Positions 8,731-44,925 of a DNA stretch of 64,000 nt are shown here, in pieces. The position numbers were made by a program, and so were the translations under genes. Below the pieces are notes generated by a model, which worked only from the letters and a program-made list of their open reading frames with translations, did no database searches and was not told where the DNA came from. Position 1 is the first letter of the stretch; each line of letters starts with the position of its first letter. Source of the DNA: Candidatus Latescibacterota bacterium (lineage in GTDB: Bacteria; Latescibacterota; UBA2968; GCA-2709665); the NCBI GenBank assembly GCA_965208835.1, contig OZ242358.1:3736433-3800432 (forward strand). Direction: 5' to 3'.

Positions 8731-8783
8731 TGGATGTCTCCCCTAATGGGCGATCACAAGGGTCGCCCCTAAGCAGCGGCTTT

Positions 8784-10001: not shown

Positions 10002-10149
10002 TTTGCCTCCATCAAAAGAAGAATCCAGAAGCCGGCAATCAGAATCCGGAAGGGAAGGCTGATTCTCTTCCATATCCTGACTTTCGACTCCTGGATTTCT
10101 CAATGACGCGCCGCCCGGTCCGCCACCGTTCCGACCCGACTCCACTCAC

Positions 10150-12555: not shown

Positions 12556-12690
12556 CGTCCTCGTTTCGGGTTGGCGACGATACGTCAGACCGCGCGCCTG
12601 AAGTTTGAAGTGCGGCGGTCGAATCTATCCTGCTGCTACGTATATTACTTGGATGTCCATATTAGCAATTGGTTGCAGAAAATCACAAAG

Positions 12691-13041
12691 GCGGGGAGAC
12701 GGGAGACGCAAGAGGTAAGAGATGACTCGCCTCGCCAGGTTGCAATTCATGCCGGAGGCCTAACAGCCCGTTGAAAAAGTCCATCCGGGCTGCGGCCGGC
12801 CCTTGCGGTCGAAATACTGCGTTGCGCTCCCTCGCCGAATCACAGGATGGGACTCGGTCGCGCGCCTTGTCTTCGACCACAATGGCTCGGCCTCGCCTGC
12901 AGAGCGACTTTATCAACGGACTGCTAAAGGAGGAACATATCGGCAAAGACCTCTTCTCACGTCTACCCTCTCCCGTCTACCCGCTTTTGGGCTTTTCCTT
13001 CTTCCTTTCTACTTCTTCCTTTTGCCTTTCTCCTGCTTCTT
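12691..13041. repeat. GA-rich / CT-rich inverted element (family 3), interrupted by family-1 copy a
   Basis: Left arm GCGGGGAGACGGGAGACGCAAGAGG (12691-12715) is an imperfect reverse complement of CCTCTTCTCACGTCTACCCTCTCCCGTCTACCCGC (12950-12984). A CT-rich tract continues to about 13041. Shares AGACGTGAGA with 21827..22056. Confidence 0.5.
12764..12923 (+). repeat. Family-1 palindromic MITE-like repeat, copy a (160 bp, full length)
   Basis: Runs CAGCCCGTTGAAAAAG...CTTTATCAACGGACTG and is flanked by CTAA on both sides (12760-12763 and 12924-12927). Confidence 0.85.
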
Positions 13042-13106
13042 ACAATAAGAAAGGAGGACGATCCGACGGACCGCCCCCCCCTCTATGTTTACCGCGCACC
13101 GTGCCC

Positions 13107-14150: not shown

Positions 14151-14181
14151 AGCAATTCTCCTTAAGACGTCGCGAGGTTCG

Positions 14182-16569
14182 TTATCGGATCACGACAAAC
14201 GTGCCGGTCTTGATCTTTCCGGCGCCGGCCGAACCTTCAACGCCGTGCACGGCATAGAAATAGATTCCCGGACCCACAAGCGCCCGGATCGTGGAATACG
14301 GCCGACCGGTCCACCGCGTCTCGCTGGACGCGTTGTTCTTCTGACGCAGCACCTGGATCAGCTGCCCGGCAGTGTTGAAGATATAAATAAACGAGTTGGA
14401 CGGCACGTTCACGAAGCGGATTGAAAGGCCGCCGCCGTACTCGTTCGTGCCGTTGGCCATGTACGGGTTCGGCACCACCACGATATCGCGTTCCAAAGCG
14501 TCAGCGGCCGCCACGAACGGCAACACGGGCGACCCGCGGTTGACTTGCAGGAAGTTGGAGAACGGACCTTCCTGTCCGTTCTGCAGGAACTTCTGCGCCC
14601 TGGGAGGGAGATCCGCGAAAGTCATCGTGCCGTCGTTGTTCACCCAGTCGTTATGCGGTTCCTGGTAGGCCCGGATGCTGTAGTAATAGAAGAATCCGGC
14701 GTTGGAACTCGCGTCGGACCAGCCGTACATTCCGGGACGTGCGGCGCGCCGGCCATCGCTGGCCTGGTTGGCCAGCCCCTGGGCGACGGACTCGTCGGTC
14801 TCCGCCGCTGCGACGGGCCAGTCCGCGCCCGCATCGTACGTGACACCTGCCGGCAGCGGTCCGCCCACGGGAATGTCGCCGACCAGCGAGAACGGGCCGG
14901 TGGCCGTGAGCGTTCCACGCAGCCCGCGGTAGATGCGGAAGCCGGCCACGTCGGCTGCGCCGTAGTCGGGATGAACCGCGCCCTGGGCCTCGGCGGCCCA
15001 GAACAGCTTCACCTTGGCGTTCTCGTCGCTCTTCACGAAAACGTCGACGTCGGGTGGGCCATCCGGAATGTCAAAGCCGCTCTGATAGGCGAATAACGCG
15101 TGTTCCAGGTGTTCTACGATCGCCTGCTCGCCCGAAAGGAAACTGGCTTTATCGGCGGTGAGCGACCACTGCCAGATGTCTATGGGGCTTTTGCCGGGAC
15201 CGGCATACTCGGCGCCGGAACCGGCCACAAACGCCACCACGACCTTGGCCTTGTCGCCAGGGCCAAGCGCCCATGGGCCATAGACCTGCGCGTTCGTGAA
15301 CCCGCCCACCGCGGTGGGGTTGTCCTGCGCGGACGTTGCCGTCAACTTGGCAAATGCCTCGGCAGGGGTCTCTCCTTCAAGGACGGGCTCGTCATAGTCG
15401 GCGGTCGTGCGTACGTTCCACCAGCCCTGGTAGACCGGCTGGTCCGCCGCGGGCTGTACGTACTGACCCGCGTCGTGCATGTTGAACGCGTGTCTGGGGT
15501 CGTCCGGGCTGTCCGCGAACGCGACCGGCGCCATGCCCACGAATGAATGGGCGGACAGCTTGCCGTCGGGGAAGGCCATCTCCTTCAGGTCGGAGGTTTC
15601 GATATCCTTGATCCAGGGGTCCCCTGTATCCTCCCAGGCCTTGAACGGGCTGTCGCCGTCGAACTGGTAGCTCAGCTTGAGCCCCTGCGCCCTGGCCGCG
15701 CTGATGGCAACAGGCCCGCCGGGGCCGCCATCCACGTAGTTTCCGGCCTCCGTGTACCGGAAGTGATCGTCGAGACCGTCGTCGAACCACCGCCACCAGC
15801 GGCCGCCGCCCTGGTTGTTGTCGGAGGTTTCATTGATTTTCCAGGTGGCCACCAGCGGCAGGTACACTTCGTTGTGCCGGTCGCTGCCGGTGTTTTCCAG
15901 AATGAATTCCGCAATGACGAAATCGTCGAACATCTGATGGGACCAGTTGTGGACCTTTCGGGTGATGGTGATATCGAACTTGTTGGTCCACTTGGCGACC
16001 AGAATCTCTTCCGCAAACGCGTCGTCCGGCGTGTATTCTCCGGGCGAGAAGTTCCAGATCAATCTTGGCGGTGCGCTGACGTCATTTTCGTCCGGAACGT
16101 TCGCACCCTGCCAGTAGTTGCTGGGTTGCGTAAACGACGCCCCGCGCCCCTGCTCCCACTCCGTGGCCGCGCCGAGGTGCGCCTCGGGCCCGCTGGATGG
16201 ATCATAGACCAGCGGCGTGATATCGACGCTCTTGCCCCGGGGGCCGGTCCAGGCCGCATCCACACCTCCGGGCCCCACGACCATGATCCAGGTACCGAAT
16301 CCGACCGCGTTGCCGCCCCGGCGGGTATAGTTGGAACTGGCGTTGCTGCTGGGGATGTTTGCCCAGCCGGGATACCAGAACATATCCGGCTCTCCCGTCT
16401 GCCCGCTTCCCAGATTCCAGCCGCCCATGGTACCGTCCGAGTTCCAGCTGATCTGGAGGTGACCCCGGCTGGTGGAAAGCCTCGGCGTGTCGCTCTGGTC
16501 AACCGCCCAGGCGCCCACTGGCAGGAGCAAGCCGCAAACAAGCGCCATAAGCTTGATGCCTGGTTTCAT
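14182..16569 (-). CDS. Secreted protein of unknown function with a T9SS-type C-terminal sorting domain
   Basis: 795 aa, RBS GGGAGA, signal peptide. The C-terminal ~90 aa (VVPNPYMANG...IYIFNTAGQLIQVL...GIYFYAV...KTGTFVVIR) fits the Por secretion tail / FlgD-Ig-like CTD pattern. Confidence 0.6.
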   Translation of the reverse strand: MKPGIKLMALVCGLLLPVGAWAVDQSDTPRLSTSRGHLQISWNSDGTMGGWNLGSGQTGEPDMFWYPGWANIPSSNASSNYTRRGGNAVGFGTWIMVVGPGGVDAAWTGPRGKSVDITPLVYDPSSGPEAHLGAATEWEQGRGASFTQPSNYWQGANVPDENDVSAPPRLIWNFSPGEYTPDDAFAEEILVAKWTNKFDITITRKVHNWSHQMFDDFVIAEFILENTGSDRHNEVYLPLVATWKINETSDNNQGGGRWWRWFDDGLDDHFRYTEAGNYVDGGPGGPVAISAARAQGLKLSYQFDGDSPFKAWEDTGDPWIKDIETSDLKEMAFPDGKLSAHSFVGMAPVAFADSPDDPRHAFNMHDAGQYVQPAADQPVYQGWWNVRTTADYDEPVLEGETPAEAFAKLTATSAQDNPTAVGGFTNAQVYGPWALGPGDKAKVVVAFVAGSGAEYAGPGKSPIDIWQWSLTADKASFLSGEQAIVEHLEHALFAYQSGFDIPDGPPDVDVFVKSDENAKVKLFWAAEAQGAVHPDYGAADVAGFRIYRGLRGTLTATGPFSLVGDIPVGGPLPAGVTYDAGADWPVAAAETDESVAQGLANQASDGRRAARPGMYGWSDASSNAGFFYYYSIRAYQEPHNDWVNNDGTMTFADLPPRAQKFLQNGQEGPFSNFLQVNRGSPVLPFVAAADALERDIVVVPNPYMANGTNEYGGGLSIRFVNVPSNSFIYIFNTAGQLIQVLRQKNNASSETRWTGRPYSTIRALVGPGIYFYAVHGVEGSAGAGKIKTGTFVVIR

Positions 16570-16636
16570 ACTTGCTTCTCCCTTTCGTTAAGACCGGGGA
16601 CGGGGAAAAACCCGCCCCCGGTATCGTTGAACACGA

Positions 16637-19600
16637 TTAGAAGTTGACTTTGAGTCCCACGCCCACCTCGCGCGGCTTCCCGTAGTACCGGGTCAGTTCG
16701 TTGTAATCGCCGTGCGTGAGGTAGTCCTGGTCGTTCGGCCTGGGAACGTTCAGACCCCAGCGGACGAAGTCGGGATAGGAGCCGCCGACGGGGCTGTCCT
16801 GCTGGTTGAACAGGTTGAAGATCTCCACGTAGAAGACGGCATTCCGGTGCCCGCCTTCCACGAGCGTCTTCTCAACCTGCAGGTCGGTCCACGTTCGGAT
16901 GGGCCTGTGGCGCAACTCCGGCTGCTTGCCCGGTGGCGTGTACCATTGGGGCCTGCCGCTCGTAATCCGCCAGACCAGATTGGTGCGCAGGCCGCCCACC
17001 GCGTGGAACTGACGCAGCCCGGGACCGAAGTCCATCGGCGTGTCCAGGTACAGCGAGAGGCTGGACTGGACGCGCAGGTCGGACCCCTTCGGATTAAACA
17101 GGCGGCCGCCGCCGTACGTGGGCTGCCACACGCCGTTCATATTGGCCGGCGCGTCGTAGGCCTTCTGGATGTCCATGAACTCGAAGATCACGAACTGATA
17201 CCTGTCGGTGATGGCTCTGGCCCTGCCCCGCCACCAGCTGGCCACCCTCGTAGCGAGCTTCATCCGTTCTTCGAGCGAGAAATCCTTGCGTACGTAAGCC
17301 GATCCGTTCCATTCCCAATCGTGATACTGGTCGGGGTTCATCACGTACGAGGAGTCGGGGTAGAACATCGTGGCGTTGGAACCCACGCGCGCCGTAGACG
17401 CCCAGCCGAAGTTGATGGCCGCGTTGAACGAGAAATAGTGGCTGAAGCCCTTGCGCACGTGCAGTTCGAGCCCTCTCATATCCTGGAAGGAACTGGGTTT
17501 GCGGCCCCAGACCCAGGTTGTGCGCTGCGGCTCGTACCAGTACCGGCTGCCTGAGGAAATCTTGCCGATGGCACTCTTGTAATAGGCCGCGATACCCGCC
17601 GTATAGTCTGCGACGAAGTTCCAGTCGGCGCCCGCCTCGTAAGCCCTTGTACGCGTGAGTGCAACGTAGGGGTTGGCCATGCGGACCTGACCGTGCAGAC
17701 CCCGGAACGCGTCCCACGCCACGTGGGCGTCAGGACCGTTGGACCGCCACTGTTCGCGGAAGTACTCGAACAGGTCGGGCACTTTGGCGTAGAGACCGGC
17801 CGTGAAGTGGAAGGCCGACCGCTGCGTAATGGGATGGGAAATCCCGAAGCGCGGGCTGAACTGGGTCGCCCACTGCGGGTCGACCGTGACCATATCCACG
17901 TGTTTGATCAGCCAGCGGTTCTGCGGTGTCTGAAGCTGCGAGACGTTGTAGAACCGATGGTTGGTGTATAACGCGTCGAACCGGATGCCCGCGTTCATCA
18001 CCATGCCCTCGAACTCCATCTTGTCCTGCAGATAGAATCCGATCTGGATGGGGTTGATCGGGGCTTTCACGTCGGGCAGATTGCCCGAGTGGGTGATGAA
18101 GTCCACAATCCGCTGGCTCGGATTCGGCGAATTGTAGTTCAGGTAATAAATGCTGAACCGGGTGAGATCAAACCCGCCCTTGACGAAGTGCCCCTTGGAC
18201 ACCTGAGAAGACACGTCCAGCTTCAGATTCAGCCGGCTACGGTCGGCGATGGTGTAATTCGCGACATTGGCGGGCTTCACGTTGAACCAGCCGTCGAGGT
18301 CCTTCTCGCCGAATACGGTCACCGGGAACCCGAACTGGTCTTTCGGCCAGTCGGTTTTCTGGGTATCTTCCAACGTTGTGTAGAACGACACCCTGGCTTC
18401 GTAGAACGTCTTCGGGGATACGGTGTGGGTCAGCGACGCGTAGGTGACCCGGTCGGTCACTTTCCGTCCGCCGGCCCCGGATCCCTCCGGCAGAAAGATA
18501 TTCTGACCGTTGGACGCCCTGTCGCGCTGGGTGTTCGTTCCCCTGTTGAAATAGTCCGCCGTGGAGTAGATCTGCCCGATGCTCACTTTCGCGTCGGCCC
18601 CCGGTCGGAACGTCAGCTTGGCGTTGCCGCGGAAATCAAGCGGCGTTTCGAGCGTGGGAAAACCGCCCGACATCACGCTGATCAGGCTGGTCGCGCCGAG
18701 GCTCGGATCGAACGTGGCATTGCGAACGGAGGTGTTCAGCACGTCCGTAGGCTGCCGGGACCACCGGGCGCTGGCGAAGAAACTGGCCTGGTCGCCCATC
18801 GGGCCGGAGATGCCGCCCTCGATATAGTAACCCTTGATGTCGGTATATTCCACGGCCCTGTGCGCCAGGCCCACCTCGTCGTCGGGCGTGCCCGGAACGC
18901 CGTCTTCACCGTCGCTCAGGATCACCGTTTCGGCGCGCCACTCACTGTCGTCCCACTTGAGCCGGTCGCGGTGATACGCGCTCTCATACAGGTTGGAACC
19001 CCAGTGCTTCTGGCTCGGGGGCGTATAGCGCAAATCGCCCCAGCCGCGGAAGTCGCGACCGCCGTCTTTGGTGATGATGGAGACCGCGCCGGATTCCAGG
19101 TTTCCGTATTCCGCGCTCGCGCCGCCGGAAATCACGGTGATTTCCTGAACGGCAGTCTTGGAGGGTCCGGTGAACTGCCGGCCGTACCCGTCGTTGTTCG
19201 GCAGAACCACGCCGTCCACCATCAGGATGCCGTCTTTCGAGTCTCCGCCGCGGATGACGTTGGCATTGGTGAGCTGCACGCCCGGATTCAACGTAACCAG
19301 GTCCGTGACCGACCGCGCCATGGGCAGCGCCTCCAGTTGCTCGACGCCCATCACGTAATGGCTGGTGGTCTTGTCGGGCTCTACCGGCGGGCGCTCGGCC
19401 ACGACCACGAGTTCCTCGGCTTCGAGCGCCGTCTCCTTCAACTGGAAGTCGACGGTTGTGGTAAAGTCGGCCTGGATTCGCACGTCGGTCTTCGTGACGG
19501 CGTTGTAGCCGACCATTGACGCCACCAGCGTAATGTTGCCCGGGTCGACGGAGATGACAAGATAGTAACCGTCAGCATCCGACTGCGCCCCCCTGCGCGT

Positions 19601-19762
19601 GCCTTCGATAACGACATTCACGCCGGGAAGCGGCTCACCGGACGCCGCATCCATAATGCGCCCGGTCAGTTTACCGGTCTGGCCCGCAAACGCGTCCGTG
19701 GAAAAACCCACAAGCACGAAGAGCGCGACCGGCAAAGCCACAAACAACTTCCATCTGTTCAT
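16637..19762 (-). CDS. TonB-dependent outer-membrane receptor with an N-terminal CarboxypepD_reg-like domain
   Basis: 1041 aa, RBS GGAGGAGG, signal peptide. GRIMDAASGEPLPGVNVVIEGTRRGAQSDADGYYLV matches the carboxypeptidase regulatory-like fold. Plug-like region, long beta-rich body, terminal ...GVGLKVNF. Confidence 0.8.
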   Translation of the reverse strand: MNRWKLFVALPVALFVLVGFSTDAFAGQTGKLTGRIMDAASGEPLPGVNVVIEGTRRGAQSDADGYYLVISVDPGNITLVASMVGYNAVTKTDVRIQADFTTTVDFQLKETALEAEELVVVAERPPVEPDKTTSHYVMGVEQLEALPMARSVTDLVTLNPGVQLTNANVIRGGDSKDGILMVDGVVLPNNDGYGRQFTGPSKTAVQEITVISGGASAEYGNLESGAVSIITKDGGRDFRGWGDLRYTPPSQKHWGSNLYESAYHRDRLKWDDSEWRAETVILSDGEDGVPGTPDDEVGLAHRAVEYTDIKGYYIEGGISGPMGDQASFFASARWSRQPTDVLNTSVRNATFDPSLGATSLISVMSGGFPTLETPLDFRGNAKLTFRPGADAKVSIGQIYSTADYFNRGTNTQRDRASNGQNIFLPEGSGAGGRKVTDRVTYASLTHTVSPKTFYEARVSFYTTLEDTQKTDWPKDQFGFPVTVFGEKDLDGWFNVKPANVANYTIADRSRLNLKLDVSSQVSKGHFVKGGFDLTRFSIYYLNYNSPNPSQRIVDFITHSGNLPDVKAPINPIQIGFYLQDKMEFEGMVMNAGIRFDALYTNHRFYNVSQLQTPQNRWLIKHVDMVTVDPQWATQFSPRFGISHPITQRSAFHFTAGLYAKVPDLFEYFREQWRSNGPDAHVAWDAFRGLHGQVRMANPYVALTRTRAYEAGADWNFVADYTAGIAAYYKSAIGKISSGSRYWYEPQRTTWVWGRKPSSFQDMRGLELHVRKGFSHYFSFNAAINFGWASTARVGSNATMFYPDSSYVMNPDQYHDWEWNGSAYVRKDFSLEERMKLATRVASWWRGRARAITDRYQFVIFEFMDIQKAYDAPANMNGVWQPTYGGGRLFNPKGSDLRVQSSLSLYLDTPMDFGPGLRQFHAVGGLRTNLVWRITSGRPQWYTPPGKQPELRHRPIRTWTDLQVEKTLVEGGHRNAVFYVEIFNLFNQQDSPVGGSYPDFVRWGLNVPRPNDQDYLTHGDYNELTRYYGKPREVGVGLKVNF

Positions 19763-33820: not shown

Positions 33821-34056
33821 TGGGATTCGAAAACCAACTGGGTGTTGCAGCGCTCTCGGTACTGGGAACATTGCTTCTCCGATGGATCGGGGTTCCCAAA
33901 CGTTGGACGCCGGTGACGCCTCTGGTTCTGTCGATGCTGATCGTTGGGTTTTTCGGAGAACTTGAGAAATTCAGCGACACACTGAGGATCGGTCTCGTCA
34001 GTGGGCTGTTCGCCAATGGATTCCTATTCCTTCTTCTTGGCACCCGGAATGGATGA
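33821..34056 (+). CDS. Small hypothetical membrane protein
   Basis: 78 aa. ATG at 33821 follows GGAGGA. Two or three hydrophobic segments. The 3' end overlaps the convergent TPR gene, and there is no homology evidence. Confidence 0.35.
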
Positions 34057-35193
34057 CCTTATTCGAAGACGATTGAGGTCATCCAGTAGTTGCTTGGCGT
34101 CGAATACGACGGAATTCTTCGAAGTGCGTTTTTCCTTACGCACGTAGGCTTCGAGCGCTTCCCGGGCTTCTTCGTGGCGACCGTCTCGATAGCAGGCCAG
34201 CCCCAGGTAAAAGTAAGCGTCTGTCTGAAGCGAATCGGCCTCGACCGCGTTCCGAAGATGCGCAATAGAATTTTCATAATTGCGAATGTTGAAGTACGAC
34301 ACCCCCAGTTTCAGATAGACTGAAGCATCATCCGCCCCGGCAGCCGTCGCCTTTCGATAGGTGTCGGCGGCCGTTTCATAATCCCCCCGATTAAACGCCA
34401 GGTTGCCTAGACTTACGTAGGCCTCACCGTATTGCGGGTCGATCTCCAATGCCATCAGATAGGCGGCCCGTGCCTTCCCGAGTTTCCCTTCCTGTGCGTA
34501 TGCCATTCCCAGATTTCTGTAGATGTAGCGGCGTTCCGCGGTGTCGGACTGAAACTGAAGCGCCTTTTCATAGATTTCAATGGCTTTGTCCGCCCGTCCC
34601 GTATATATATATGTAAGGCCCAGATTGAGATACGCGTCCGTAAATTTGTCGTTGAGTTTGACCGCACGTCTGTACTCCGCAACTGCCTGATCGGCGTATC
34701 CTTTATGGTAATAGGCCAGCCCCATCAGATTTCGCACGAAAGCCGACCCGGGTTTGAGTTCCAGCGCGGCTCTATATTGCGCCAGGGCCGAGTCATAATT
34801 CCCTTTGTGATAGTATGTTCTGCCCAGATCGACACGTGCATGAAAGATTCGGGGATTGGCTCTTGTCGACCGTTTCAGGTATTCAAGTCGTTCATCGGGC
34901 CGTGTCAGCAGGCGCCCGTACAGGTAAAGGCCCACGGCCGACCCGGGTCTGGCCTGCAGGCGTCTCAGGTATTCGGAAAGCACCTCCCGTCGACGGTCCG
35001 CCTTTATCATCAAATCCTGGTAATGCATATTCGCCTGGATGTCCTTGGGCCGCACATTGATCAGGCGCCGGAAATGAGCCAGTTCAGCATCATTGCCTCC
35101 GACCTCTGCGCCATGGGTCGGGCTTCCGAACCATCCGATGCCAATGAGAATAACGAAGATCAGAGTGTTAGACACATGCGCCTCGGTAGACAA
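34024..35193 (-). CDS. Secreted multi-TPR repeat protein
   Basis: 389 aa with a TTG start (a GTG six codons later is an alternative). Hydrophobic N-terminus. Eight or more canonical TPR units (AYYHKGYADQAVAEYRRAVKLNDKFTDAYLNLG...). Confidence 0.75.
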   Translation of the reverse strand: MSTEAHVSNTLIFVILIGIGWFGSPTHGAEVGGNDAELAHFRRLINVRPKDIQANMHYQDLMIKADRRREVLSEYLRRLQARPGSAVGLYLYGRLLTRPDERLEYLKRSTRANPRIFHARVDLGRTYYHKGNYDSALAQYRAALELKPGSAFVRNLMGLAYYHKGYADQAVAEYRRAVKLNDKFTDAYLNLGLTYIYTGRADKAIEIYEKALQFQSDTAERRYIYRNLGMAYAQEGKLGKARAAYLMALEIDPQYGEAYVSLGNLAFNRGDYETAADTYRKATAAGADDASVYLKLGVSYFNIRNYENSIAHLRNAVEADSLQTDAYFYLGLACYRDGRHEEAREALEAYVRKEKRTSKNSVVFDAKQLLDDLNRLRIRSSIPGAKKKE

Positions 35194-35688: not shown

Positions 35689-36543
35689 CTATCTGTCTTT
35701 TTTCAGAAGGATATTCAAAGGTCGTTTGGGCTTGTAGAGATAGATGACGTCGGCAGGGTCCAGCATGGTATTGAATATGGCGATTTCGTCAATTTTGCCG
35801 GAATAGGCGTAATTGTTGAACCGGATGGCCAATTCATCCATGTTCCAGGAAATGTTGCGTCGGATATTCTTCTTCCGACCGATTTCCTCGCCGTCGACGA
35901 AGAGTGCGTATTCGGCATCGGAGTTTCCACTGTTGATATTGGACCAGGTGACCACAACGTGGTGCCATTGGTCGGACTTCCAGTTGAGCCTGTCGTACCT
36001 GATCGTCCACTGCCTTACCAGTTCTTCCCCGACGTTTTGCGTCTTGTCGGGATAACAGCCGAAACGGAGTGCGCTCGGAGGACGATCCTTCCGGTTCTTG
36101 TCGAAGTCTACGAAAATGACCGCGTCGTCCCACTTCTTTCCGACGGAAAAGGGCTCGGGAAATTTCTCCTTGAAATCGTTGTTTGGATCTACGCTCAGCC
36201 AGAAAGAGACCCCGCCGGACCAGGAACTGCCGGCGTCGTAGGGAAAGTTGCCTTTAGCCTGATAACTCAGATAGGTTGCACCGTTCGCGAATGAAACGAA
36301 ACCGTCCTCTTTGCCACCGGTAAACTCATGCCTGGGAGGGCTGCTCGTTTCCATTGCAGCGACCGTGCCCTTTTTCTTCGTAAATGCCTCGAAACGGGAT
36401 CTGTCGTCAAAGTTGGCGAAAAAGAGTACGTTCGCGGCGAGCTTTTCCTCGATTTTCTTCTCGGGACCGCCGCAGAAAGAAAGACAAAGCGCGGCAGCCG
36501 GAATTGAGATCAGGCGGGGAGCGCACCGGGCCATAAGGCACAT
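35689..36543 (-). CDS. LamG / concanavalin-A-like lectin domain lipoprotein
   Basis: 284 aa. N-terminus AAALCLSFCGG. Motifs DQWHHVVVTWS...YALFVDGEEIG...YSGKIDEIAIFNTML are typical of the LamG fold. Confidence 0.6.
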   Translation of the reverse strand: MCLMARCAPRLISIPAAALCLSFCGGPEKKIEEKLAANVLFFANFDDRSRFEAFTKKKGTVAAMETSSPPRHEFTGGKEDGFVSFANGATYLSYQAKGNFPYDAGSSWSGGVSFWLSVDPNNDFKEKFPEPFSVGKKWDDAVIFVDFDKNRKDRPPSALRFGCYPDKTQNVGEELVRQWTIRYDRLNWKSDQWHHVVVTWSNINSGNSDAEYALFVDGEEIGRKKNIRRNISWNMDELAIRFNNYAYSGKIDEIAIFNTMLDPADVIYLYKPKRPLNILLKKDR

Positions 36544-37145: not shown

Positions 37146-40100
37146 ATGCTGCGCAAACTAGGCGGCGTGATTCTCTGGCTGATCGCAATCTTTATGCTTT
37201 CGTCGGTTACCGTGTTCAACCCGGGACAGGTAACCGACTTTTTTGTTCGTGTGTTCAATATCAAGCCAAGTGTTCCGCAGTTGCGCGAGGAAAAACCCTC
37301 CCATAGAGACGAAAGCATTCAGGATTTCGCCGATCAGATCTCAGAGGAGCGTCTTCAGGAAACTGTATCTGCTCTCACTGGATTGGGATCTCGCGTGCCG
37401 GGGTATCCGGGGCACAGGAAGGCATTTGAATACGTCAAGAGCCGTTTCCAGGCGCTGGGCCTGGACGACATAACGGTCGAGGAACACCACGTTACGGTAC
37501 CTATCGACAAGGGCGCGAAACTGGAGATCCTGGACTCCGGTGTGAAGATCCGGCTTTACGGACTCTGGCCCAATCATGTACAGACACCTTCCCTGCCGGA
37601 ACAAGGCGTTACCGGCGCACTGATCGACGCGGGAGACGGCTCCTTCAAAGCGTTGAATTCGAAACCTGTGAAAAACAGCATTGCATTGATGCAGTTCGAT
37701 TGCGGACAGAACTACCTCAATCCCCGCATGCTGGGTGCGCAGGCTGTCATCTTCTACGATAACGGCGGCGTGAGCAGAGGACAGGCACTGGAGAAAATCC
37801 TCCAGGTGCCGGTGGACGTGCCGAGGTTCTGGGTGAAAAGAGACGACGCGGTCCGTCTTGTTTCACTTGCGGAGTCCGGCACCGCGCTCGTGAACGTCAC
37901 GTCGAGGATGGACTGGGAAAAGGTCCCCACGTGGAACATCTACGCCACACTGCCCGGCTCCGATGAATACGTTACTGAGCGTGAAGAACGGAAGTGGAAG
38001 GACGAGATGGTCGTCCTGAGTTCATTTTACGACGCCATTTCCGTCGTGCCTGCACTGGCCCCGGGCGCGGAGAACGCCACAGGGCTGGCTGCCCTTCTGG
38101 AAGTCGCGGCTGCGTTGAAAGACCAATCCTGGCTGGGCGCTTCCTCCCGACTGCCGCAGCTGCCGAGGTATACGGTAAAATTCCTGGTAACGGGCGCACA
38201 TTTCCAGGGGTTGGCCGGCATCAATGATTTTCTGTTCAGGCATTCCAGGGAAAGCGACCACTTCCGGGAGAAAATTCCGGACGGACAGAAGATCGACTTC
38301 CGTCTCTACGTCGGGTTCGACCTGTCGAGTGAAACGGACCAGATCGCCAGTTTCTCCCACGGTACGTTCATCAACCCGAACTGGTCAACGAACAACTACG
38401 AAAACAACCTGCTTGCACCCTATGCCAAGAAGTTCAACAAATACCTTGCCAAAGTCTATCCCGGCGAGGAGCGCCACGTCGACGCCGTCGCGCCGCCGAA
38501 GCGAACCTGGAAGAACTACATGCCCATCCGTCTGGGATTCGACAGTGAAGCGGTCAAATTCGTCGGCAAGGAAGGAATTACGCTGGCCAGCCCTTCCACA
38601 ACCCGCGAAAAGGTGGATACGCCCGCCGACCAGGTGGAATTCGTCAACTTCTCCAACCTGGCCCACCAGACACGTACAGCAACAGGCATGCTGCTGAAGG
38701 CGTTGGAAGATCCCGAATTCTTCCGGGTGTCCAAACTCAAGCTTCAGGACCTTGGTCACAGCATGAAGGGGCGAATTCTCTGGTTCGAACGGGATGCCGA
38801 TTTCGCGATTCCGCGCGTACCGGTACCGGGGGCGATCGTCACCTACCAGCAGCCCGGTCCGGTTGCGAGCTGCGGCGGGGTCCGAACATTGATTGTGGAT
38901 AAGACCACCCAGGGCCCCAGGTACATCAGTGATCGCTCCACGGGGCCTATGTTCGGAACCAAGGCGGAAGTCGAAGCCACAGGGCGGTTCCGCTTCGACA
39001 TCATGCGTAACCGGTTTACAAATCAGATACTGGCATACGAAATCGACGATCGCGGCAGAATCACCTCGGCGCCGGACCTGGGCACGGAAGGGGAGGAAAA
39101 GTTCCCGACAAGGCAGGGCTATGGATGGTGGGAAAACGAGATGCTGGCGGTCCTTTTCAAGTGCCGGTCTCTCAGCGTGTTTGAAATCATCGATTCCAGT
39201 TACCTTTCCGCGCTCGATTTCATGACCGTGTTGAATGCGGGCGATTCCCAGCCGATGGAATACGGCTATTATTACATTGAAAATCAGAGTATCAAGGAAG
39301 GCGATGTCACACGGGCAGCGGTGGCGTTTACGGCCATGAACCCCACTACCGACCGTCCCGACCCCATCAAGATTCTGATGAGTACAGGCCTTTTTGGCGT
39401 GAAATACCTGCTGACCAACGCACCTGAGGAGTTGCTGGAACAACCCGTGGACAAGTGGGATGTGGACGATGAGTTGCTGGAGCGGTCCCGGGGCGCAGGA
39501 TATCCGCCTGGCATAATCCTGTATCCTTCCTACAAGGCCGCCAAGGATATGTGGGTGGTCGACGATATCAGGATGAAGCAGCTTGCCCAGTACGGAATTA
39601 CCAACGCACGGCTGGAGAAGTTGCACACGCATGCGGCCGACGCGCTGAAGAAGGCGCGCGAGAATCTGGCCAGCCACGACTACGAAGGATTTATTGCCGC
39701 GTCCAGAGAGGCGTGGGGCCTGGAAGCACGGGGATACCCCGAGGTCATGTCAACCGCAAACGACACGGTGCGCGGGATCATCTTTTATTTCATTCTCCTG
39801 CTTCCGTTCTCCTTCTTCTGCGAACGGCTGCTTTTCGGATTCCCGGATATCACCCGCCGTCTGGTCGGCTTTGCAGGAATCTTCGTGCTGTTTTTCATTA
39901 TCCTCCGATACGTGCATCCGGCCTTCAAGCTGAGCAGCACGCCCTACATCATCTTCCTGGCATTTGTAATCATGGCCCTGGGCGGCATTGCAATGTTCAT
40001 TGTCGTTTCCAAATTCGGCGAGGAAGTCAGGAAGATGAAACAGGCCTCGGCGGGCACGTACGAGGCGGATGTGGGTCGGTTGAGCGCGACTGCCGCTTCC

Positions 40101-41942
40101 ATCATTCTGGGCATTTCCAATCTGCGAAAACGACCCCTCCGTACCGGGCTGACGGCGATCACCCTGACGTTGCTTACGTTCACCGCCCTGTCGTTTACAT
40201 CGGTGCAGACTTCCATCAAATTCTATCGCCTGCCGAGGGACAACCAGCCGCCGTACCCTGGCGGCCTGGTACGGGATCGATCCTGGAGGGGATTGCAGGA
40301 ATCCGTACTTCAGTACCTGACCAGCGCTTTCAAGGGCCGTGCGACCATTGTTCCCCGTGCGTGGTATCTTTCGCAGGTTCGCGGGGAACGGGCGTACGTC
40401 AATTTCTCGCGGATCACGGATCAGACTTCCTACCTGGGCTCAAGAGATACCTATGTCGATTTCGACGTGGGCATCACCACCGGAAAGGACAGCTTCGTAA
40501 ACGGCTTGCTGGGGCTTACCGCGGAAGAACCTGAAATCACCGGCGTCGACCGATACCTGATCAGCGGAAGATGGTTTGTCCCCGGAGAGACGAATGTGTG
40601 TATTCTCCCGAACGATCTCGCGGAACTGGTGGGAATCTTCCCTGAAGACGCCGGGAGTGCGAAAATCGAGATGCTGGGCGGCGTCTTCACCGTGATTGGA
40701 ATCATGGATTCCGAGGGATTCAACAAATACAAGGACATGGACGACGAGAAGCTGACGCCGGTGGATACGGTAAAGGAGAAGGACGACCTGGCGGACGCTC
40801 AGGACCAGGACCCGCGAGTCGTCGCTGCGGCTCCGATCGAGACGTTTACGCATCTGGAGTCGACCAACGTGATGATATTGCCTTATGATTACGTCCGCAA
40901 TATCGGAGGCACTCTGAATTCCGTCGCATTAGCGAACTTCGTGGACGCCCAGGGCAATCCCAGGTCGAACTTCCTGCCTGATGTCGAGGAATTCATGACA
41001 CGGGTTTCTTTGACTATGTTTGTGGGCCACGAAAACAAGGTCACGGTGTACAGTTCCATCGGTTCAACGTCTCTATCGGGATTGGGCACGCTCTTCATTC
41101 CGATTCTGATTGCCGCATTGATCGTGCTGAATACGATGATGGGCGCGGTGTACGAACGGTTCAACGAGATCGGGATTTACTCGGCGGTCGGGCTGGCGCC
41201 CAATCACATTGCGGCGCTGTTTCTGGCGGAAGCGACCGTATTCGCCACGGTGGGCGCCGTGTTCGGATATCTGATTGGACAAGTGCTTGTTCTCGTGCTG
41301 TTTACCCAGGCGCAGGCGCAGGGACAACTGCTCAGCCTCGAATTGAACTATTCTTCGTTGTCAGCCATTTCGTCCACATTAATTGTCATGGCTACGGTAT
41401 TCCTCTCTACACTGTACCCTGCCAAAAAAGCCGCGGATATGGCCGTGCCTGATGTGACCCGAAAGTGGGAGTTTCCGGAGCCCGAGGGCGACAGATGGGT
41501 ATTCGATTTTCCGTTTACCGTTGGCGGCGCGGAAGTATTGGGAATGTACACGTATCTGACACGCGTCTTCGAGTCATACGGCGAGGGTTCCGTAGGCGAC
41601 TTTGTGGCCGATTACGTCCGTTTCACTTCGCAGGACATGCAGGGTGAGCCACAATATGAGATCAACCTCACGTGCTGGCTTGCGCCATACGACCTGGGCA
41701 TCAGCCAGGAGGTGGCGCTGCTGGCCATTCCAACGAGAGAACACAATATTTACAAGATTGAGGTCGTCATCAACCGGCTCAGCGGTGACGTGGCCTCGTG
41801 GAAACGCATCAACAGGGGTTTCCTGAACGTCCTCCGGAAGCGATTCCTGGTCTGGCGCACCATTCCACCCGAACTGAAGCACCAGTACGCGGACGAGGGC
41901 AACCGCATTCTGTCAGACACGGTAGAAGAAGCGGCAGTATAG
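37146..41942 (+). CDS. Giant membrane protein: N-terminal anchor + M28B/PA (transferrin-receptor-like, apparently inactive) ectodomain + FtsX/MacB-type permease + C-terminal cytoplasmic domain
   Basis: The ORF track starts at 37047 inside repeat 2b. The ATG at 37146 (MLRKLGGVILWLIAIFML) follows CAGGAG. PA-like VTGALIDAGDG...IALMQFDCGQNY...GAQAVIFYD. M28-like VVLSSFYDAIS..APGAENATGLAALLEVA..FLVTGAHFQGLAGINDF. FtsX motifs LRKRPLRTGLTAITLTLLTF and MGAVYERFNEIGIYSAVGLAPNHIAALFLAEA. Confidence 0.7.
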   Translation: MLRKLGGVILWLIAIFMLSSVTVFNPGQVTDFFVRVFNIKPSVPQLREEKPSHRDESIQDFADQISEERLQETVSALTGLGSRVPGYPGHRKAFEYVKSRFQALGLDDITVEEHHVTVPIDKGAKLEILDSGVKIRLYGLWPNHVQTPSLPEQGVTGALIDAGDGSFKALNSKPVKNSIALMQFDCGQNYLNPRMLGAQAVIFYDNGGVSRGQALEKILQVPVDVPRFWVKRDDAVRLVSLAESGTALVNVTSRMDWEKVPTWNIYATLPGSDEYVTEREERKWKDEMVVLSSFYDAISVVPALAPGAENATGLAALLEVAAALKDQSWLGASSRLPQLPRYTVKFLVTGAHFQGLAGINDFLFRHSRESDHFREKIPDGQKIDFRLYVGFDLSSETDQIASFSHGTFINPNWSTNNYENNLLAPYAKKFNKYLAKVYPGEERHVDAVAPPKRTWKNYMPIRLGFDSEAVKFVGKEGITLASPSTTREKVDTPADQVEFVNFSNLAHQTRTATGMLLKALEDPEFFRVSKLKLQDLGHSMKGRILWFERDADFAIPRVPVPGAIVTYQQPGPVASCGGVRTLIVDKTTQGPRYISDRSTGPMFGTKAEVEATGRFRFDIMRNRFTNQILAYEIDDRGRITSAPDLGTEGEEKFPTRQGYGWWENEMLAVLFKCRSLSVFEIIDSSYLSALDFMTVLNAGDSQPMEYGYYYIENQSIKEGDVTRAAVAFTAMNPTTDRPDPIKILMSTGLFGVKYLLTNAPEELLEQPVDKWDVDDELLERSRGAGYPPGIILYPSYKAAKDMWVVDDIRMKQLAQYGITNARLEKLHTHAADALKKARENLASHDYEGFIAASREAWGLEARGYPEVMSTANDTVRGIIFYFILLLPFSFFCERLLFGFPDITRRLVGFAGIFVLFFIILRYVHPAFKLSSTPYIIFLAFVIMALGGIAMFIVVSKFGEEVRKMKQASAGTYEADVGRLSATAASIILGISNLRKRPLRTGLTAITLTLLTFTALSFTSVQTSIKFYRLPRDNQPPYPGGLVRDRSWRGLQESVLQYLTSAFKGRATIVPRAWYLSQVRGERAYVNFSRITDQTSYLGSRDTYVDFDVGITTGKDSFVNGLLGLTAEEPEITGVDRYLISGRWFVPGETNVCILPNDLAELVGIFPEDAGSAKIEMLGGVFTVIGIMDSEGFNKYKDMDDEKLTPVDTVKEKDDLADAQDQDPRVVAAAPIETFTHLESTNVMILPYDYVRNIGGTLNSVALANFVDAQGNPRSNFLPDVEEFMTRVSLTMFVGHENKVTVYSSIGSTSLSGLGTLFIPILIAALIVLNTMMGAVYERFNEIGIYSAVGLAPNHIAALFLAEATVFATVGAVFGYLIGQVLVLVLFTQAQAQGQLLSLELNYSSLSAISSTLIVMATVFLSTLYPAKKAADMAVPDVTRKWEFPEPEGDRWVFDFPFTVGGAEVLGMYTYLTRVFESYGEGSVGDFVADYVRFTSQDMQGEPQYEINLTCWLAPYDLGISQEVALLAIPTREHNIYKIEVVINRLSGDVASWKRINRGFLNVLRKRFLVWRTIPPELKHQYADEGNRILSDTVEEAAV

Positions 41943-42011: not shown

Positions 42012-44066
42012 GTGGTTTTGGCAATCGAACCCAAAGACCCTAGAGAAGAGCAGGAACAGTACGAAAACATCATGCCGGTCGATGCGCCGTTCGAAGATGG
42101 CTTCAATATGAAGACCCTGTGGGCGACGCTTTTTGTGGGCCTGGTGATGCTGCCCGGTGCAATCTATCTTGGCCTGGTTACCGGACAGAACATGGCGGGT
42201 GCGTCCGAATGGGTGACCATCATCCTCTTCCTGGAAATCGCCAAAAGGTCCTTCGTGAGGCTGAAGACGCAGGAGGTCCTGGTCATCTACTGGGTTGCCG
42301 GCGGATTGCTGGGCGTGGGCGTCCGGTTGGGCAGCGCGGCACTGGTGTATGGAGGGCCGTTCGGCGGATTGATCTGGGATCAATACCTGATCCAGTCCCC
42401 GGCCGCCAGAGGGCTTGCGGATTTCATACCGGACTGGGTGGTTCCCCGGATCAGCGAACATCCGGAGATTTACGCGGAACGTACGTTCCTGCACGCCGCG
42501 TGGTTGAAGCCGATCGGCATCCTCGTCGCATTGACACTGTTAAGCAATACCGCGAGACTGTCGCTTGGGTACGTGATGTTTCGCATTACGAGCGACATCG
42601 AACGGTTGCCGTTTCCGCTGGCTCCAGTCCAGGCCCGCGGGGCCACCGCGCTCGCCGAAACGTCGGCCAAACAGGAAGGCTGGAGATGGCGGGTATTCAG
42701 TACAGGAGCGTGTATCGGATTGGTCTGGGGCCTTCTGTATGTCGTGGTCCCGACACTGTCCAGCATATTCCTGACCGATACGGTCCAGATCCTTCCCATT
42801 CCCTGGATCGATTTCACGGAACAGATCAAGACCATCCTGCCCGCTGCGCTGTTTGGAATAGCAACCGACCTGGGCCACCTGATCGTCGGGTTCGTTTTGC
42901 CGTTCTGGGTGGTTATCGGGTCGTTCGCCGGCGCCGTCCTTGGAAACCTGGTTGTCAATCCGTTTCTGTACAGATGGGAAATCCTGGACCGCTGGTCCGC
43001 GGGCATGACGGCGATCCCGACTTCGATCTCCAACCAGTTCGACTTCTGGCTCAGCTTTGGGATCGGCACTTCGTTCGTCATCGCGTTCACTGGATTCTAC
43101 CAGGTGTTTCGGGTGCTTATGGAACAGCGCCGTCAGAAGCAGCAAACGGGGCATCATACGTCCGGTATCGACCTCGAGGACCTTCCGAAGGGCCGGTCGG
43201 ATATGAAGATGATTTACCCTATTCTGTTCTGGGGCGCCGCCACATTGGGCTTTATCGTGATGTGCCAGATGCTGGTTCCCGAGTTCCACTGGGGCTGGGT
43301 CGTGTTCTTCGGACTCATTTACACGCCGATTTCTTCTTATATCGGCGCGCGCATGATCGGCCTGACGGGAAGCCCGTACGGGGCGAGTATCCCCTATTTA
43401 CGGGAAGCGGGAATACTTCTTTCCGGATACAAGGGCGTCGCGGTCTGGTTCGCCCCCCTTCCGCTGCACGACCACGGCCTGGCCGTGCCTACCTACAAAC
43501 AGATGGAACTCACGAAAACGAAATTTGTCAGTTACGTGAAATTGACCGCGGTGACCATGGTGGTCATTTTCATCTTCAGCTTCATCTTCTGGGAATTCAT
43601 CTGGCGACTTGGACCCATTCCCTCATCCAGCTATTACTATGTGCAGACATTCTGGCCATACGACGCCACAATGACCACGATGTGGCTAAAGTCGACAATG
43701 CCGGACCTCGAAGGGCAAGGGACCGTCGGCGTCGAACTCCTCAAAGATATTATCAAACCGGAACTCATCGGCGCCGGATTCGCCGTTGGCGGCCTCATGT
43801 ATCTCATTCTGGCCGCGCTGAAAGCGCCTACGCTGTTCTTTTTCGGCTTCGTGGGCTCGCTTGCAACATGGCCGCATTTCGTGATCCTGCAGTTTGCCGG
43901 CGCACTGCTTGGACGTTTCTATTTCGCCAGGCGTTTCGGCGAATCCAAGTGGCGGGCGTACGCACCCATTCTGCTGGCAGGATATTACTGTGGCATGGGG
44001 CTCATCGGGATGACTTCGGTTTCCGTTGTGCTGATTTCAAAGGCCGTCTCCCAGGTCGTATTCTAG
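42012..44066 (+). CDS. Polytopic (12 or more TM) membrane protein ('P2'), paralog of 4982..6949
   Basis: 684 aa. The GTG at 42012 directly abuts GAGGAGG, so the TTG at 42018 has better spacing. Motifs FIPDWVVPR and FRITSDIERLPFPLAPV parallel IPHWLAPR and QWMESERISFPILRPV in P1. Confidence 0.65.
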   Translation: MVLAIEPKDPREEQEQYENIMPVDAPFEDGFNMKTLWATLFVGLVMLPGAIYLGLVTGQNMAGASEWVTIILFLEIAKRSFVRLKTQEVLVIYWVAGGLLGVGVRLGSAALVYGGPFGGLIWDQYLIQSPAARGLADFIPDWVVPRISEHPEIYAERTFLHAAWLKPIGILVALTLLSNTARLSLGYVMFRITSDIERLPFPLAPVQARGATALAETSAKQEGWRWRVFSTGACIGLVWGLLYVVVPTLSSIFLTDTVQILPIPWIDFTEQIKTILPAALFGIATDLGHLIVGFVLPFWVVIGSFAGAVLGNLVVNPFLYRWEILDRWSAGMTAIPTSISNQFDFWLSFGIGTSFVIAFTGFYQVFRVLMEQRRQKQQTGHHTSGIDLEDLPKGRSDMKMIYPILFWGAATLGFIVMCQMLVPEFHWGWVVFFGLIYTPISSYIGARMIGLTGSPYGASIPYLREAGILLSGYKGVAVWFAPLPLHDHGLAVPTYKQMELTKTKFVSYVKLTAVTMVVIFIFSFIFWEFIWRLGPIPSSSYYYVQTFWPYDATMTTMWLKSTMPDLEGQGTVGVELLKDIIKPELIGAGFAVGGLMYLILAALKAPTLFFFGFVGSLATWPHFVILQFAGALLGRFYFARRFGESKWRAYAPILLAGYYCGMGLIGMTSVSVVLISKAVSQVVF

Positions 44067-44221
44067 TGTTCTGTCCCAAAAATATCTAACCATTCAGCCG
44101 CCGATTCATCCCGTCTCGCGGCGTTGCCTTCCCTCGCCGACCTTCCGCAGGTCGGAGGCGCCTTGCGAGCCGGGCGACTCGACAGCTGAATTTAGGCAAC
44201 CTATTTCCGGGACAGAACACT
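44065..44221. repeat. Singleton 157-bp long palindrome abutting the P2 stop codon
   Basis: AGTGTTCTGTCCC (44065-44077) pairs with GGGACAGAACACT (44209-44221). Inner pairs are ATTCAGC/GCTGAAT and a central CGACCT-TCCGC-AGGTCG. Confidence 0.6.
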
Positions 44222-44223: not shown

Positions 44224-44322
44224 CAGTCCTTTGATAAAGTCGCTCTGTAGGCGAGGCCGCGCAATGCAGTATTTCGACCGCAAGGGCCGGCCGCAGCCCG
44301 GATGGGCTCTTTCAACGGGCTG
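44224..44322 (-). repeat. Family-1 repeat, copy g (99-bp internal-deletion subfamily, reverse orientation)
   Basis: Runs CAGTCCTTTGATAAAGTCGCTCTGTAGGCGAGGCCGCGCAATGCAGTATTTCGACCG...CAACGGGCTG, with the same junction type as copy f. Confidence 0.75.
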
Positions 44323-44451
44323 CCAGCCTGGAAGCCTGTGTTGTATGACGGAACGCCGCCCGGATCCCGGCTGTCTAAGGAACACCCAAGACGCCTGATC
44401 CGGGCCGAATTTCATCCGCCTGGACCGGATTTCAACCACAGGGAGGTTTCA

Positions 44452-44925
44452 ATGAAGCGGGGCGAAAGAATTACGGGACTTTCGCTGATTGCCTTTGTCG
44501 TATTGGCGCTTACCATGGATGCAGCGGCACAGCCCGATCGCAGGGGCGGACGGGAACGGGGACGGCGCGGGGGCGCGGCCCGGATGCGAATGATGTTGCC
44601 CCTGGAGCAGACGTTGAGCTTTCTGGCTTTCGACGAAAAGATAGCGTTGAAGGACGACCAACTGATTAAGATCAGAAAAGCTCTAATGGAGATTCATGGA
44701 AGCCGGGCCGAACTGCTGAAAGAAATGCGGAACGGCGCCGACCGGCAGCAAATCATGGAGAAGCTCGGCCGCCTTCGCAGTTCAATGTTCGAGAAGGTCA
44801 AGGCGGTGCTGGACGACAAACAGGATGAAGTTCTGGATGGCTATCTGGAGAGGATGCGGCGAGGGTTTCAACGTGGACGCGGCGGCGGCCGGCGGAGTGG
44901 CGGTCCGCCGGGCGGCGGTGTTTGA
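44452..44925 (+). CDS. Periplasmic Spy/CpxP-like (LTXXQ-type) protein with Arg/Gly-rich ends
   Basis: ATG at 44452 follows GGGAGG. Signal peptide LSLIAFVVLALTMDAAAQ. LKDDQ and LDDKQ are LTXXQ-like motifs in helical segments. Confidence 0.45.
   Translation: MKRGERITGLSLIAFVVLALTMDAAAQPDRRGGRERGRRGGAARMRMMLPLEQTLSFLAFDEKIALKDDQLIKIRKALMEIHGSRAELLKEMRNGADRQQIMEKLGRLRSSMFEKVKAVLDDKQDEVLDGYLERMRRGFQRGRGGGRRSGGPPGGGV

Follow-up and report, generated by a model that had tools for sequence, protein, structure and literature searches.

An M28 peptidase-like ectodomain fused to an FtsX-type permease in Latescibacterota, and its linkage to a family of polytopic membrane proteins

The 64,000-nucleotide stretch analysed here, called the window throughout, belongs to a Candidatus Latescibacterota bacterium (assembly GCA_965208835.1, contig OZ242358.1, positions 3,736,433 to 3,800,432 of the forward strand), and all positions below are counted from its first letter. 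It carries on the plus strand a fusion gene, a single uninterrupted open reading frame (ORF) at 37146..41942 that encodes 1598 amino acids (aa) plus the stop, and 75 nt downstream on the same strand a gene for a polytopic membrane protein, here called the partner, with no terminator-like site in the gap. The product of the fusion gene is a single inner-membrane protein with eight transmembrane (TM) segments, in which a periplasmic head is tethered via three TM helices to a permease of the MacB/FtsX type (type VII ATP-binding cassette (ABC)-like) with a periplasmic domain of its own, and a conserved cytoplasmic C-terminal domain (CTD) follows. Fusion gene and partner form a conserved two-gene module. 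An alternative in-frame ATG at 37047 would lengthen the protein by 33 aa; the start at 37146 was favoured by orthologue gene calls, and the orthologue P0001, 94% identical to the fusion protein, was called at 1598 aa, the length obtained from 37146. The features of the two genes were as follows.

37146..41942, plus strand: whole fusion gene (ORF scan, orthologue gene calls)
37158..37220, plus strand: TM1, N-terminal membrane anchor, about aa 5-25 (hydropathy, segment aa 1-27)
37323..38735, plus strand: M28 peptidase-like domain with an inserted protease-associated (PA) domain, about aa 60-530 (Pfam, PDB profile, AlphaFold and Foldseek)
37608..37853, plus strand: PA (apical) insert, aa 155-236 (Pfam; transferrin receptor (TfR1) profile match at aa 60-273)
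38736..39515, plus strand: conserved periplasmic region with no assigned fold, mostly beta, about aa 531-790 (conservation; predicted local distance difference test score (pLDDT) of the model 25-60)
39525..39767, plus strand: predicted helical bundle before the membrane, about aa 794-874 (predicted helices, model residues 739-819)
39774..40013, plus strand: three extra TM helices, about aa 877-956, which bring the chain back to the cytoplasm (hydropathy; highly conserved)
40014..40205, plus strand: cytoplasmic linker, amphipathic helix (LGISNLRKRPLRT) and TM1 of the FtsX module, aa 957-1020 (hydropathy, model, Foldseek)
40206..41075, plus strand: periplasmic domain of the FtsX module, MacB_PCD-like, about aa 1021-1310 (about 290 aa, between TM5 and TM6 of the protein; Foldseek, hydropathy)
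41076..41429, plus strand: TM2-TM4 of the FtsX module with the coupling-helix motif (ERFNEIGIYSAVGLAPNHI) (Pfam, PDB profile)
41433..41939, plus strand: CTD, cytoplasmic, about aa 1430-1598 (model pLDDT about 80-90)
42018..44066, plus strand: partner gene, 682-aa polytopic membrane protein of the family called A5 (P0271 is 100% identical)

More than 120 full-length homologues of the fusion protein were found by database search in NCBI, ENA, JGI and Logan assemblies, including closed long-read chromosomes of 3.7-8 Mb. They were 1514-1758 aa long and 49-94% identical to the fusion protein, and chance resemblance was excluded because of their number, length and identity. Where names were given, these were only "M28 family peptidase", "FtsX-like permease family protein" or hypothetical. 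For the comparison of residues, an alignment of 91 sequences was composed of the query and 90 distant full-length representatives (31-56% identical to the query), and all 90 representatives aligned across both the M28 half and the FtsX half; residues at single positions were counted in 121 homologues and, separately, in the 91-sequence alignment. The original prediction, made by eye from the window, had proposed a 1598-aa fusion and named a frameshift or assembly error as the way in which two genes could have been joined artificially. No such joint was found: the ORF is continuous and the architecture of 1500-1600 aa recurs in the homologues across independent assemblies, closed chromosomes included, which established the fusion as real.

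Among the species representatives of GTDB, 399 loci encoded a relative of the fusion gene. The best 80 of these 399 came nearly all from metagenome-assembled genomes of Candidatus Latescibacterota, a few being labelled Gemmatimonadota or Planctomycetota, and in two of the 80 the CTD was 99-100% identical to the window copy. Together with six loci retrieved by protein identity, these 80, which were retrieved by the CTD pattern, made up a set of 86 related loci. Single Latescibacterota genomes contained two or three diverged paralogous modules, and every one of these had an A5- or DUF6785-type gene beside it (L023, L079 and L086 on OZ244937.1; L011 and L077 on OZ220733.1), and three modules (P0004, P0026 and P0036) were also found on one 5.46-Mb contig. 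Giant members of the family occurred as well, with 900-1500 extra N-terminal residues (P0122, 2930 aa; P0124, 3053 aa; P0125, 2769 aa; P0153, 2451 aa), and in P0122 a Big_5 Ig-like domain preceded the M28 head. A literature search on DUF6785, DUF6784 and combinations of FtsX, M28 and Latescibacteria returned no description of the architecture or of the DUFs. The earlier statement that no protein with this domain order has been described thus holds for the searchable literature, and the family is nonetheless abundant in sequence databases. The domain combination, the CTD, the linkage to the partner and the missing ATPase all appear to be undescribed, while the main domains except the CTD belong to known superfamilies.

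Hydropathy analysis of the fusion protein placed the eight TM segments at aa 1-27, three within 874-959, one at 1002-1020 and three within 1305-1424. The positively charged N-terminus (MLRK) suggests that TM1 is inserted with its N-terminus inside, so that the domain following it would be periplasmic. The whole topology was self-consistent with this orientation, the 850-aa head being periplasmic and the last 170 residues cytoplasmic. For structure prediction the protein was modelled as two separate halves, aa 56-875 and aa 965-1598. In the permease half, Pfam FtsX (PF02687) matched residues 1317-1431 with an E value of 2.9e-14, and MacB_PCD (PF12704) was present on homologues. A profile search of this half against the PDB matched YtrF (4.5e-11), MacB (6.6e-9) and LolC, with E values from 4.5e-11 to 6e-7. 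The AlphaFold model of aa 965-1598 had a mean pLDDT of 72.5, and Foldseek aligned it over about 480-545 columns with MacB (5lil, 1.9e-11), the S. pneumoniae Spr0694-0695 transporter, LolC/E, YtrF, HrtB, YbbP and FtsX; for MacB, LolC/E and YtrF the aligned length was about 490-545 columns, which takes in the periplasmic domain. Matches to NCBIfam models were weak and below threshold, all of them between the FtsX part and the FtsX, LolC/E, MacB, DevC and ADOP models. The loop between TM2 and TM3 of the module (ERFNEIGIYSAVGLAPNHI) corresponds to the coupling helix of known systems and was the best-conserved block of the whole protein. Several TM helices followed by a canonical FtsX/MacB module had been predicted, with an extracytoplasmic domain of about 300 aa; the module was canonical both by sequence and by fold, the eight segments came in the expected order, and the domain measured about 290 aa.

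The head was compared in three ways, by Pfam, by a PDB profile search and by Foldseek on the AlphaFold model, and all agreed with the predicted M28 and PA ectodomain behind one TM anchor. Peptidase_M28 (PF04389) was matched at residues 281-430 (E 6.5e-6; 26.4 bits against a gathering cut-off of 21.3), and PA at residues 155-236 with E 5e-4, slightly under the gathering score; PF02225 was precomputed on several homologues. A PDB search with the single ectodomain sequence gave nothing useful and a family profile was required. This profile (A1) matched 2ek8, a PA-containing M28 aminopeptidase of Aneurinibacillus, with E 9e-14 over aa 60-354, and further YwaD, TfR1 (about 1e-5), nicalin (2e-4) and the Vibrio aminopeptidase. 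The model of aa 56-875 (mean pLDDT 68; predicted template modelling score 0.67) was good at 56-530 and 790-865 and poor at about 560-760. Its top Foldseek match was again 2ek8 (1.6e-21), followed by 3iib, PaAP, TfR1 (4e-18) and GCPII/NAALADaseL (about 1e-16). The head is a homologue of the PA-containing M28 aminopeptidases and has the fold class common to the transferrin receptor, GCPII and nicalin. The M28B-type layout, an N-terminal anchor and a protease-like domain with a PA insert, was recovered by hydropathy, Pfam, profile and Foldseek, with the orientation deduced from the charged N-terminus. The predicted helical bundle takes the position of the helical dimerisation domain of TfR and GCPII; about 260 poorly modelled residues separate it from the M28 domain, and Pfam TfR_dimer (PF04253) had no match in the fusion protein.

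The original prediction had also read the active site of the head as substituted, in the manner of the transferrin receptor. All the motifs it quoted are present, and HMMER alignment to 2ek8 placed them in the register assigned by eye.

38025..38033, plus strand: F294-Y295-D296 where M28 enzymes have H-x-D, SSFYDAIS against S-H-H-D-S of 2ek8 (HMMER profile alignment to 2ek8)
38070..38072, plus strand: E309 at the position of the bridging Asp, PGAENATG against G-A-n-D-D-A-S-G of 2ek8 (HMMER profile alignment to 2ek8)
38199..38204, plus strand: H352-F353 where M28 enzymes have the catalytic Glu followed by the zinc-ligand Glu, GAHFQGLAG against G-A-E-E-N-G-L (HMMER profile alignment to 2ek8)
38319..38321, plus strand: D392 at the end of the predicted beta-strand FRLYVGFD, probably corresponding to ligand 4, Asp/Glu (assigned from the motif and from predicted secondary structure)
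38604..38606, plus strand: R487, probable equivalent of the fifth-ligand His, within R-E-K-V-D-T (motif only)

The position of the first ligand His, Phe294 in the window protein, was Tyr in 54, Phe in 36 and His in 29 of the 121 homologues. The Asp to Glu change at position 309 was nearly universal (118/121), and His352 and Phe353 were both invariant (121/121); in the 91-sequence alignment position 352 was His in 86 sequences and position 353 was never Glu. The alignment to 2ek8 ended at residue 354 and a profile limited to aa 340-530 matched nothing in the PDB, so D392 and R487 were assigned by motif and predicted structure only. In M28 enzymes the fourth ligand (Asp/Glu) lies at a strand end and the fifth is the His of H-T-x-x-D-T; D392 ends a predicted strand and R487 stands four residues ahead of D491-T492. 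Both residues were invariant in the 121 homologues, and Arg was found in 85 of the 91 aligned sequences at position 487. The five-ligand zinc set (His, Asp, Glu, Asp/Glu, His) is thus not intact, with F294, E309 and F353 placed by alignment and D392 (retained) and R487 by motif, and the general-base catalytic Glu is replaced by H352. As judged from the alignments, the canonical two-zinc site is absent throughout the family and the head is apparently non-catalytic. The strict conservation of the substituting residues shows strong purifying selection on the pocket; this argues for a site that binds, or that catalyses in an altered way, and against a decayed one. Some members, those with His at 294 besides E309 and D392, may keep a one-metal half-site. 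Of the predicted resemblance to the transferrin receptor, the ligand loss and the M28 and PA plan stood; the nearest structural relatives proved to be active bacterial PA-M28 aminopeptidases and not TfR.

The soluble domain at the C-terminus had been described as about 190 aa long and free of recognisable motifs. It has about 170 aa, and indeed no relative was found in Pfam, NCBIfam or the PDB sequences, the PDB profile search giving spurious matches to repeat proteins only. Its predicted elements are, in order, a strand, a helix, four strands and two helices. When a CTD profile was run against 1.84 billion cluster representatives (50% identity), 1542 were matched at E <= 1e-3 and 1331 at E <= 1e-10, and the domain stood almost always at the extreme C-terminus of proteins of 1450-3050 aa or of obvious fragments of these. 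The CTD is a conserved cytoplasmic domain and constitutes a previously unnamed family. Weak Foldseek matches of the permease-half model to START, PYL and Bet v 1 proteins (helix-grip; E about 6e-3 to 1.4e-2) were not localised to a sub-region; they may belong to the CTD and serve as a lead only. Stand-alone "FtsX + CTD" proteins of about 600 aa were considered and rejected, as most of those checked started inside conserved regions and resembled gene fragments.

In about 80 of the 86 loci the fusion gene directly abutted one or two genes for polytopic membrane proteins of 630-690 aa, mostly on the same strand. These fell into two groups, one with DUF6785 and DUF6784 (PF20581/PF20580; called A6) and the other, A5, without a Pfam match, and they were arranged as fusion-A5, A6-fusion-A6, A6-fusion-A5 or fusion-A6-A5. 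The window partner itself had no direct Pfam match to PF20581/PF20580, nor any match in NCBIfam (E <= 0.1 to 1), the PDB or a plasmid tblastn search. A profile search with the DUF6785 alignment yielded no source names that were informative. A comparison of A5 with DUF6785 by hhalign gave a probability of 70% and E 4e-5 over 148 columns with a shared ERLpFP motif, and the two families are probably distant homologues. The A5 family numbered 2250 homologues. NCBI gives the name "peptide transporter" to some of them, and a precomputed OPT (PF03169) match exists for eight; as the precomputed matches were not reproduced, this naming was treated as a lead and not as a finding. A fusion with the partner was found in P0241 (2120 aa, full length) and P0246 (a 1035-aa fragment), in which FtsX, CTD, a linker of about 25 residues and DUF6785 follow each other continuously. 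The two are diverged proteins, 48% identical to each other, and represent a Rosetta-stone fusion conserved across this divergence. A further protein, P0409 (632 aa), combines DUF6785 with MacB_PCD and is possibly a fragment of another fusion or the result of a different gene order. Another ORF of 656 aa (42119-44089, plus strand) overlaps nearly the whole partner gene (42012-44066) in another frame and is probably a by-product of high-G+C DNA (about 57% G+C); the frame starting at 42018 was taken as the real one because of the 100% identity of P0271.

A second, stand-alone DUF6785/DUF6784 gene lies in the window at 4982-7006 on the minus strand (Pfam E 6e-114 and 1.6e-23). It is part of a same-strand cluster (3675-19762, minus strand) with genes for a class-III aminotransferase, a gamma-glutamyltranspeptidase, a DegT-type aminotransferase, a PorV-like protein, a SusC-like TonB-dependent receptor and two proteins of about 800 aa without an assigned family. 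By its gene content the cluster appears to serve the uptake and breakdown of gamma-glutamyl or amino compounds, which would fit an importer role of DUF6785 proteins.

Based on these observations, the reading we favour, with a probability of about 0.4, is that the head is a periplasmic ligand-capture domain coupled via an FtsX mechanotransmitter to the transporter partner for the uptake of peptide-like nutrients. The pseudo-peptidase head would bind, or be the receptor for, a ligand that is peptide-like or an amino compound, and the partner would provide the translocation pathway. The CTD would contact the partner at the cytoplasmic side, and the FtsX module would transmit conformational changes between this side, with CTD and partner, and the head. 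Fusion protein and partner would thus constitute a machine for nutrient capture and uptake, the paralogous modules of each genome having diversified for different substrates, and the energy would be supplied by the partner (ion gradient) or by an ABC ATPase encoded elsewhere. The uptake direction would agree with the DUF6785 cluster in the window, the naming and precomputed OPT matches of the partner and the paralogous modules. Two precedents exist for the parts: FtsEX controls EnvC, which has a degenerate LytM metallopeptidase domain, by mechanotransmission, and TfR and nicalin are non-catalytic relatives of M28 that serve as binding modules. A more specific form of this mechanism, in which an ATPase-less FtsX/MacB mechanotransmitter is driven or gated through the CTD by a secondary-transporter-like partner (DUF6785/OPT-like) and in turn works the tethered pseudo-peptidase receptor in the periplasm, would make the module an inner-membrane machine of a new class; it was considered unlikely.

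Several points weigh against nutrient capture and uptake. The direction of transport is a guess from genomic context, and the function of every family member is deduced from sequence. The relationship between A5 and DUF6785 consists of one hhalign match at 70% probability, and the link to OPT is weak, as PF03169 and the rest of Pfam gave no match at E <= 0.1 to the window partner and 24 family members. In the head, the first ligand His is retained in 29 of 121 homologues, the fourth and fifth ligands are placed by motif alone, and the strictly conserved His352, Arg487, Asp296, Glu309 and Asp392 could compose a different catalytic site. In the permease, the coupling-helix motif is the best-conserved part, which fits an ATPase acting in trans, and orphan FtsX permeases are a known phenomenon (ADOP, TIGR03434).

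The last two points lead to the explanation that survived best beside the favoured one, namely that the fusion protein is an orphan permease of the type VII ABC class whose ATPase gene lies elsewhere, with the partner as an accessory or as a substrate conduit. In variants of it, the head would be moved by ATP-driven mechanotransmission so as to regulate or activate another factor of the periplasm or envelope, as in FtsEX-EnvC, or a substrate would be expelled from the periplasm or the membrane, as by MacB or LolCDE. It has in its favour that both the sequence and the fold of the FtsX module are canonical, that its coupling-helix loop, the element that docks the ATPase in known FtsX systems, is the most conserved block, and that precedents are at hand both in ADOP (TIGR03434; a weak match here) and in FtsEX-EnvC, where FtsX works with a degenerate metallopeptidase. 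The search for the ATPase gave a different picture. The fusion protein contains no nucleotide-binding domain by Pfam, no ORF with Walker A and the ABC signature LSGGQ was found in the 64-kb window, and an ABC ATPase-like ORF within about 10 kb was present in nine of the 86 loci and in none of the other 77. In a subclade of five loci (L054, L056, L062, L066 and L075), an ABC_tran gene and a small FtsX gene lie 1.4-2 kb downstream of the partner. In L066 (12749-15880) the genes on the same strand after the partner encode a 294-aa protein without an assigned family, a PqqD-like protein, a 228-aa FtsX protein and the ABC_tran ATPase, and the other four loci are arranged alike. This cluster could be the missing ATPase with a heterodimer partner, or a separate, unrelated exporter; its ATPase has an FtsX and a PqqD-like gene of its own and may thus belong to a separate system. 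The orphan permease also leaves the universal CTD and the Rosetta-stone fusion to DUF6785 unexplained. We regard it as possible but somewhat unlikely. Since about 90% of the loci have no linked ATPase and the CTD always follows TM4, a non-canonical coupling was favoured.

It is quite unlikely, in our judgement, that the ectodomain is still an enzyme. On this view it would be a peptidase or amidase of a non-canonical kind, for example mononuclear or independent of metal, and would trim peptides in the periplasm before the partner imports them. His352 would serve as general base in such an enzyme, with a single metal ion bound by Glu309, Asp392 and, in part of the family, His294. The invariance of the substitutes (H352, F353, D392 and R487 in 121/121, E309 in 118/121), the three half-site residues that can persist (His294 in 29/121, with Glu309 and Asp392), the active aminopeptidases as nearest structural relatives and the gamma-glutamyltranspeptidase gene that adjoins the other DUF6785 gene of the window would all be accommodated by it. 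Against these stand the Phe at position 294 of the window protein itself, the loss of the catalytic Glu and of two or three of the five ligands, the ligand-Glu position that is Glu in none of the 91 aligned sequences, and an Arg at the fifth-ligand position, which is typical of metal-free pseudo-enzymes. An artefact, in which two or three neighbouring genes were joined by a sequencing or assembly frameshift, has practically no probability left in view of the continuous ORF and the more than 120 homologues from independent assemblies. Nothing in its favour was found; the one oddity, the long ORF that overlaps the partner gene in another frame, is to be expected at this G+C content.

A small ORF 3' of the partner (44302-44925, plus strand) had an internal segment resembling a signal peptide, a charged helical core and ends rich in Arg and Gly, with no match in Pfam or NCBIfam; a 156-aa gene was called at the matching position in the close relative L001. 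Upstream and divergent, on the minus strand, lie a Laminin_G_3 gene (concanavalin-like lectin; 35689-36543) and a gene for a TPR-repeat protein (34024-35193). The Laminin_G_3 gene is also found upstream in L001 and not in more distant loci.

Type VII ABC systems such as FtsEX, LolCDE and MacB are understood as ATP-driven mechanotransmitters. Here a family of more than 1300 clusters (50% identity) keeps the FtsX permease without a linked ATPase, always adds the CTD and is wired, through gene neighbourhood and an occasional fusion, to an uncharacterised transporter-like family. If the coupling is real, the range of connections of the FtsX module would be broader; if the ATPase-free reading is true, the family would be related to the type VII ABC systems but independent of ATP, and would correspond in function, within bacteria, to receptor-mediated nutrient capture. 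It would also provide a first functional handle on DUF6785/DUF6784, and would add a bacterial case of an M28 pseudo-peptidase as membrane-tethered binding module beside TfR and nicalin. Latescibacterota are uncultured degraders of complex organic matter, and the multiple paralogous modules per genome suggest a major, so far unrecognised nutrient-acquisition device in this phylum. The linkage to the partner and the absence of an ATPase, both of which the original prediction had missed, are more informative than the architecture features that it had listed.

Compared with known systems, the ectodomain is closest to the bacterial PA-M28 aminopeptidases (2ek8, Shewanella 3iib, P. aeruginosa PaAP and B. 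subtilis YwaD), whose M28 and PA arrangement it shares, but these are secreted as soluble enzymes and have both the catalytic Glu and the full His/Asp/Glu/Asp/His ligand set. TfR1, GCPII/NAALADase (MEROPS M28B) and nicalin are, like the window protein, N-terminally anchored with a PA insert in an M28-like domain. TfR and nicalin have likewise lost the zinc ligands and are used for binding or as scaffolds, and a helical bundle like the one that follows the protease-like domain in TfR and GCPII is predicted here. They differ in being eukaryotic and single-pass, GCPII moreover being catalytically active, whereas the window protein has no TfR_dimer match and about 260 extra residues between the M28 domain and the helices. 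The permease half has its best sequence and fold matches in MacB, LolCDE, YtrEF and HrtBA, with which it has in common the four TM helices, the coupling-helix motif and the long domain in the periplasm that separates TM1 from TM2. In contrast to it, these systems have a fused or adjacent ABC ATPase, and none has an M28/PA ectodomain, three extra TM helices or a CTD of about 170 aa. ADOP proteins (TIGR03434) are likewise FtsX-type permeases without a neighbouring ATPase gene, but they contain two FtsX domains instead of one, no M28 head and no CTD, and the NCBIfam match was weak (E 6e-6; 24.6 bits against a cut-off of 622.3). FtsEX with EnvC (E. coli, V. cholerae), PcsB, RipC or CwlO combines, as here, an FtsX-type permease of four TM helices that has a periplasmic domain with a peptidase-fold module in the periplasm, and the FtsX chains 8tzk, 8hd0 and 8w6j were matched by the permease model in Foldseek (E about 2e-3 to 5e-3). 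The module of EnvC is degenerate and non-catalytic and resembles the head in this, but EnvC is a separate protein of the LytM/M23 fold and not M28, an FtsE ATPase gene adjoins ftsX, and FtsEX has neither a polytopic transporter partner nor a CTD nor the extra three TM helices. The partner, finally, is similar in size (630-690 aa) to the DUF6785/DUF6784 and OPT proteins, and all of these are polytopic membrane proteins.

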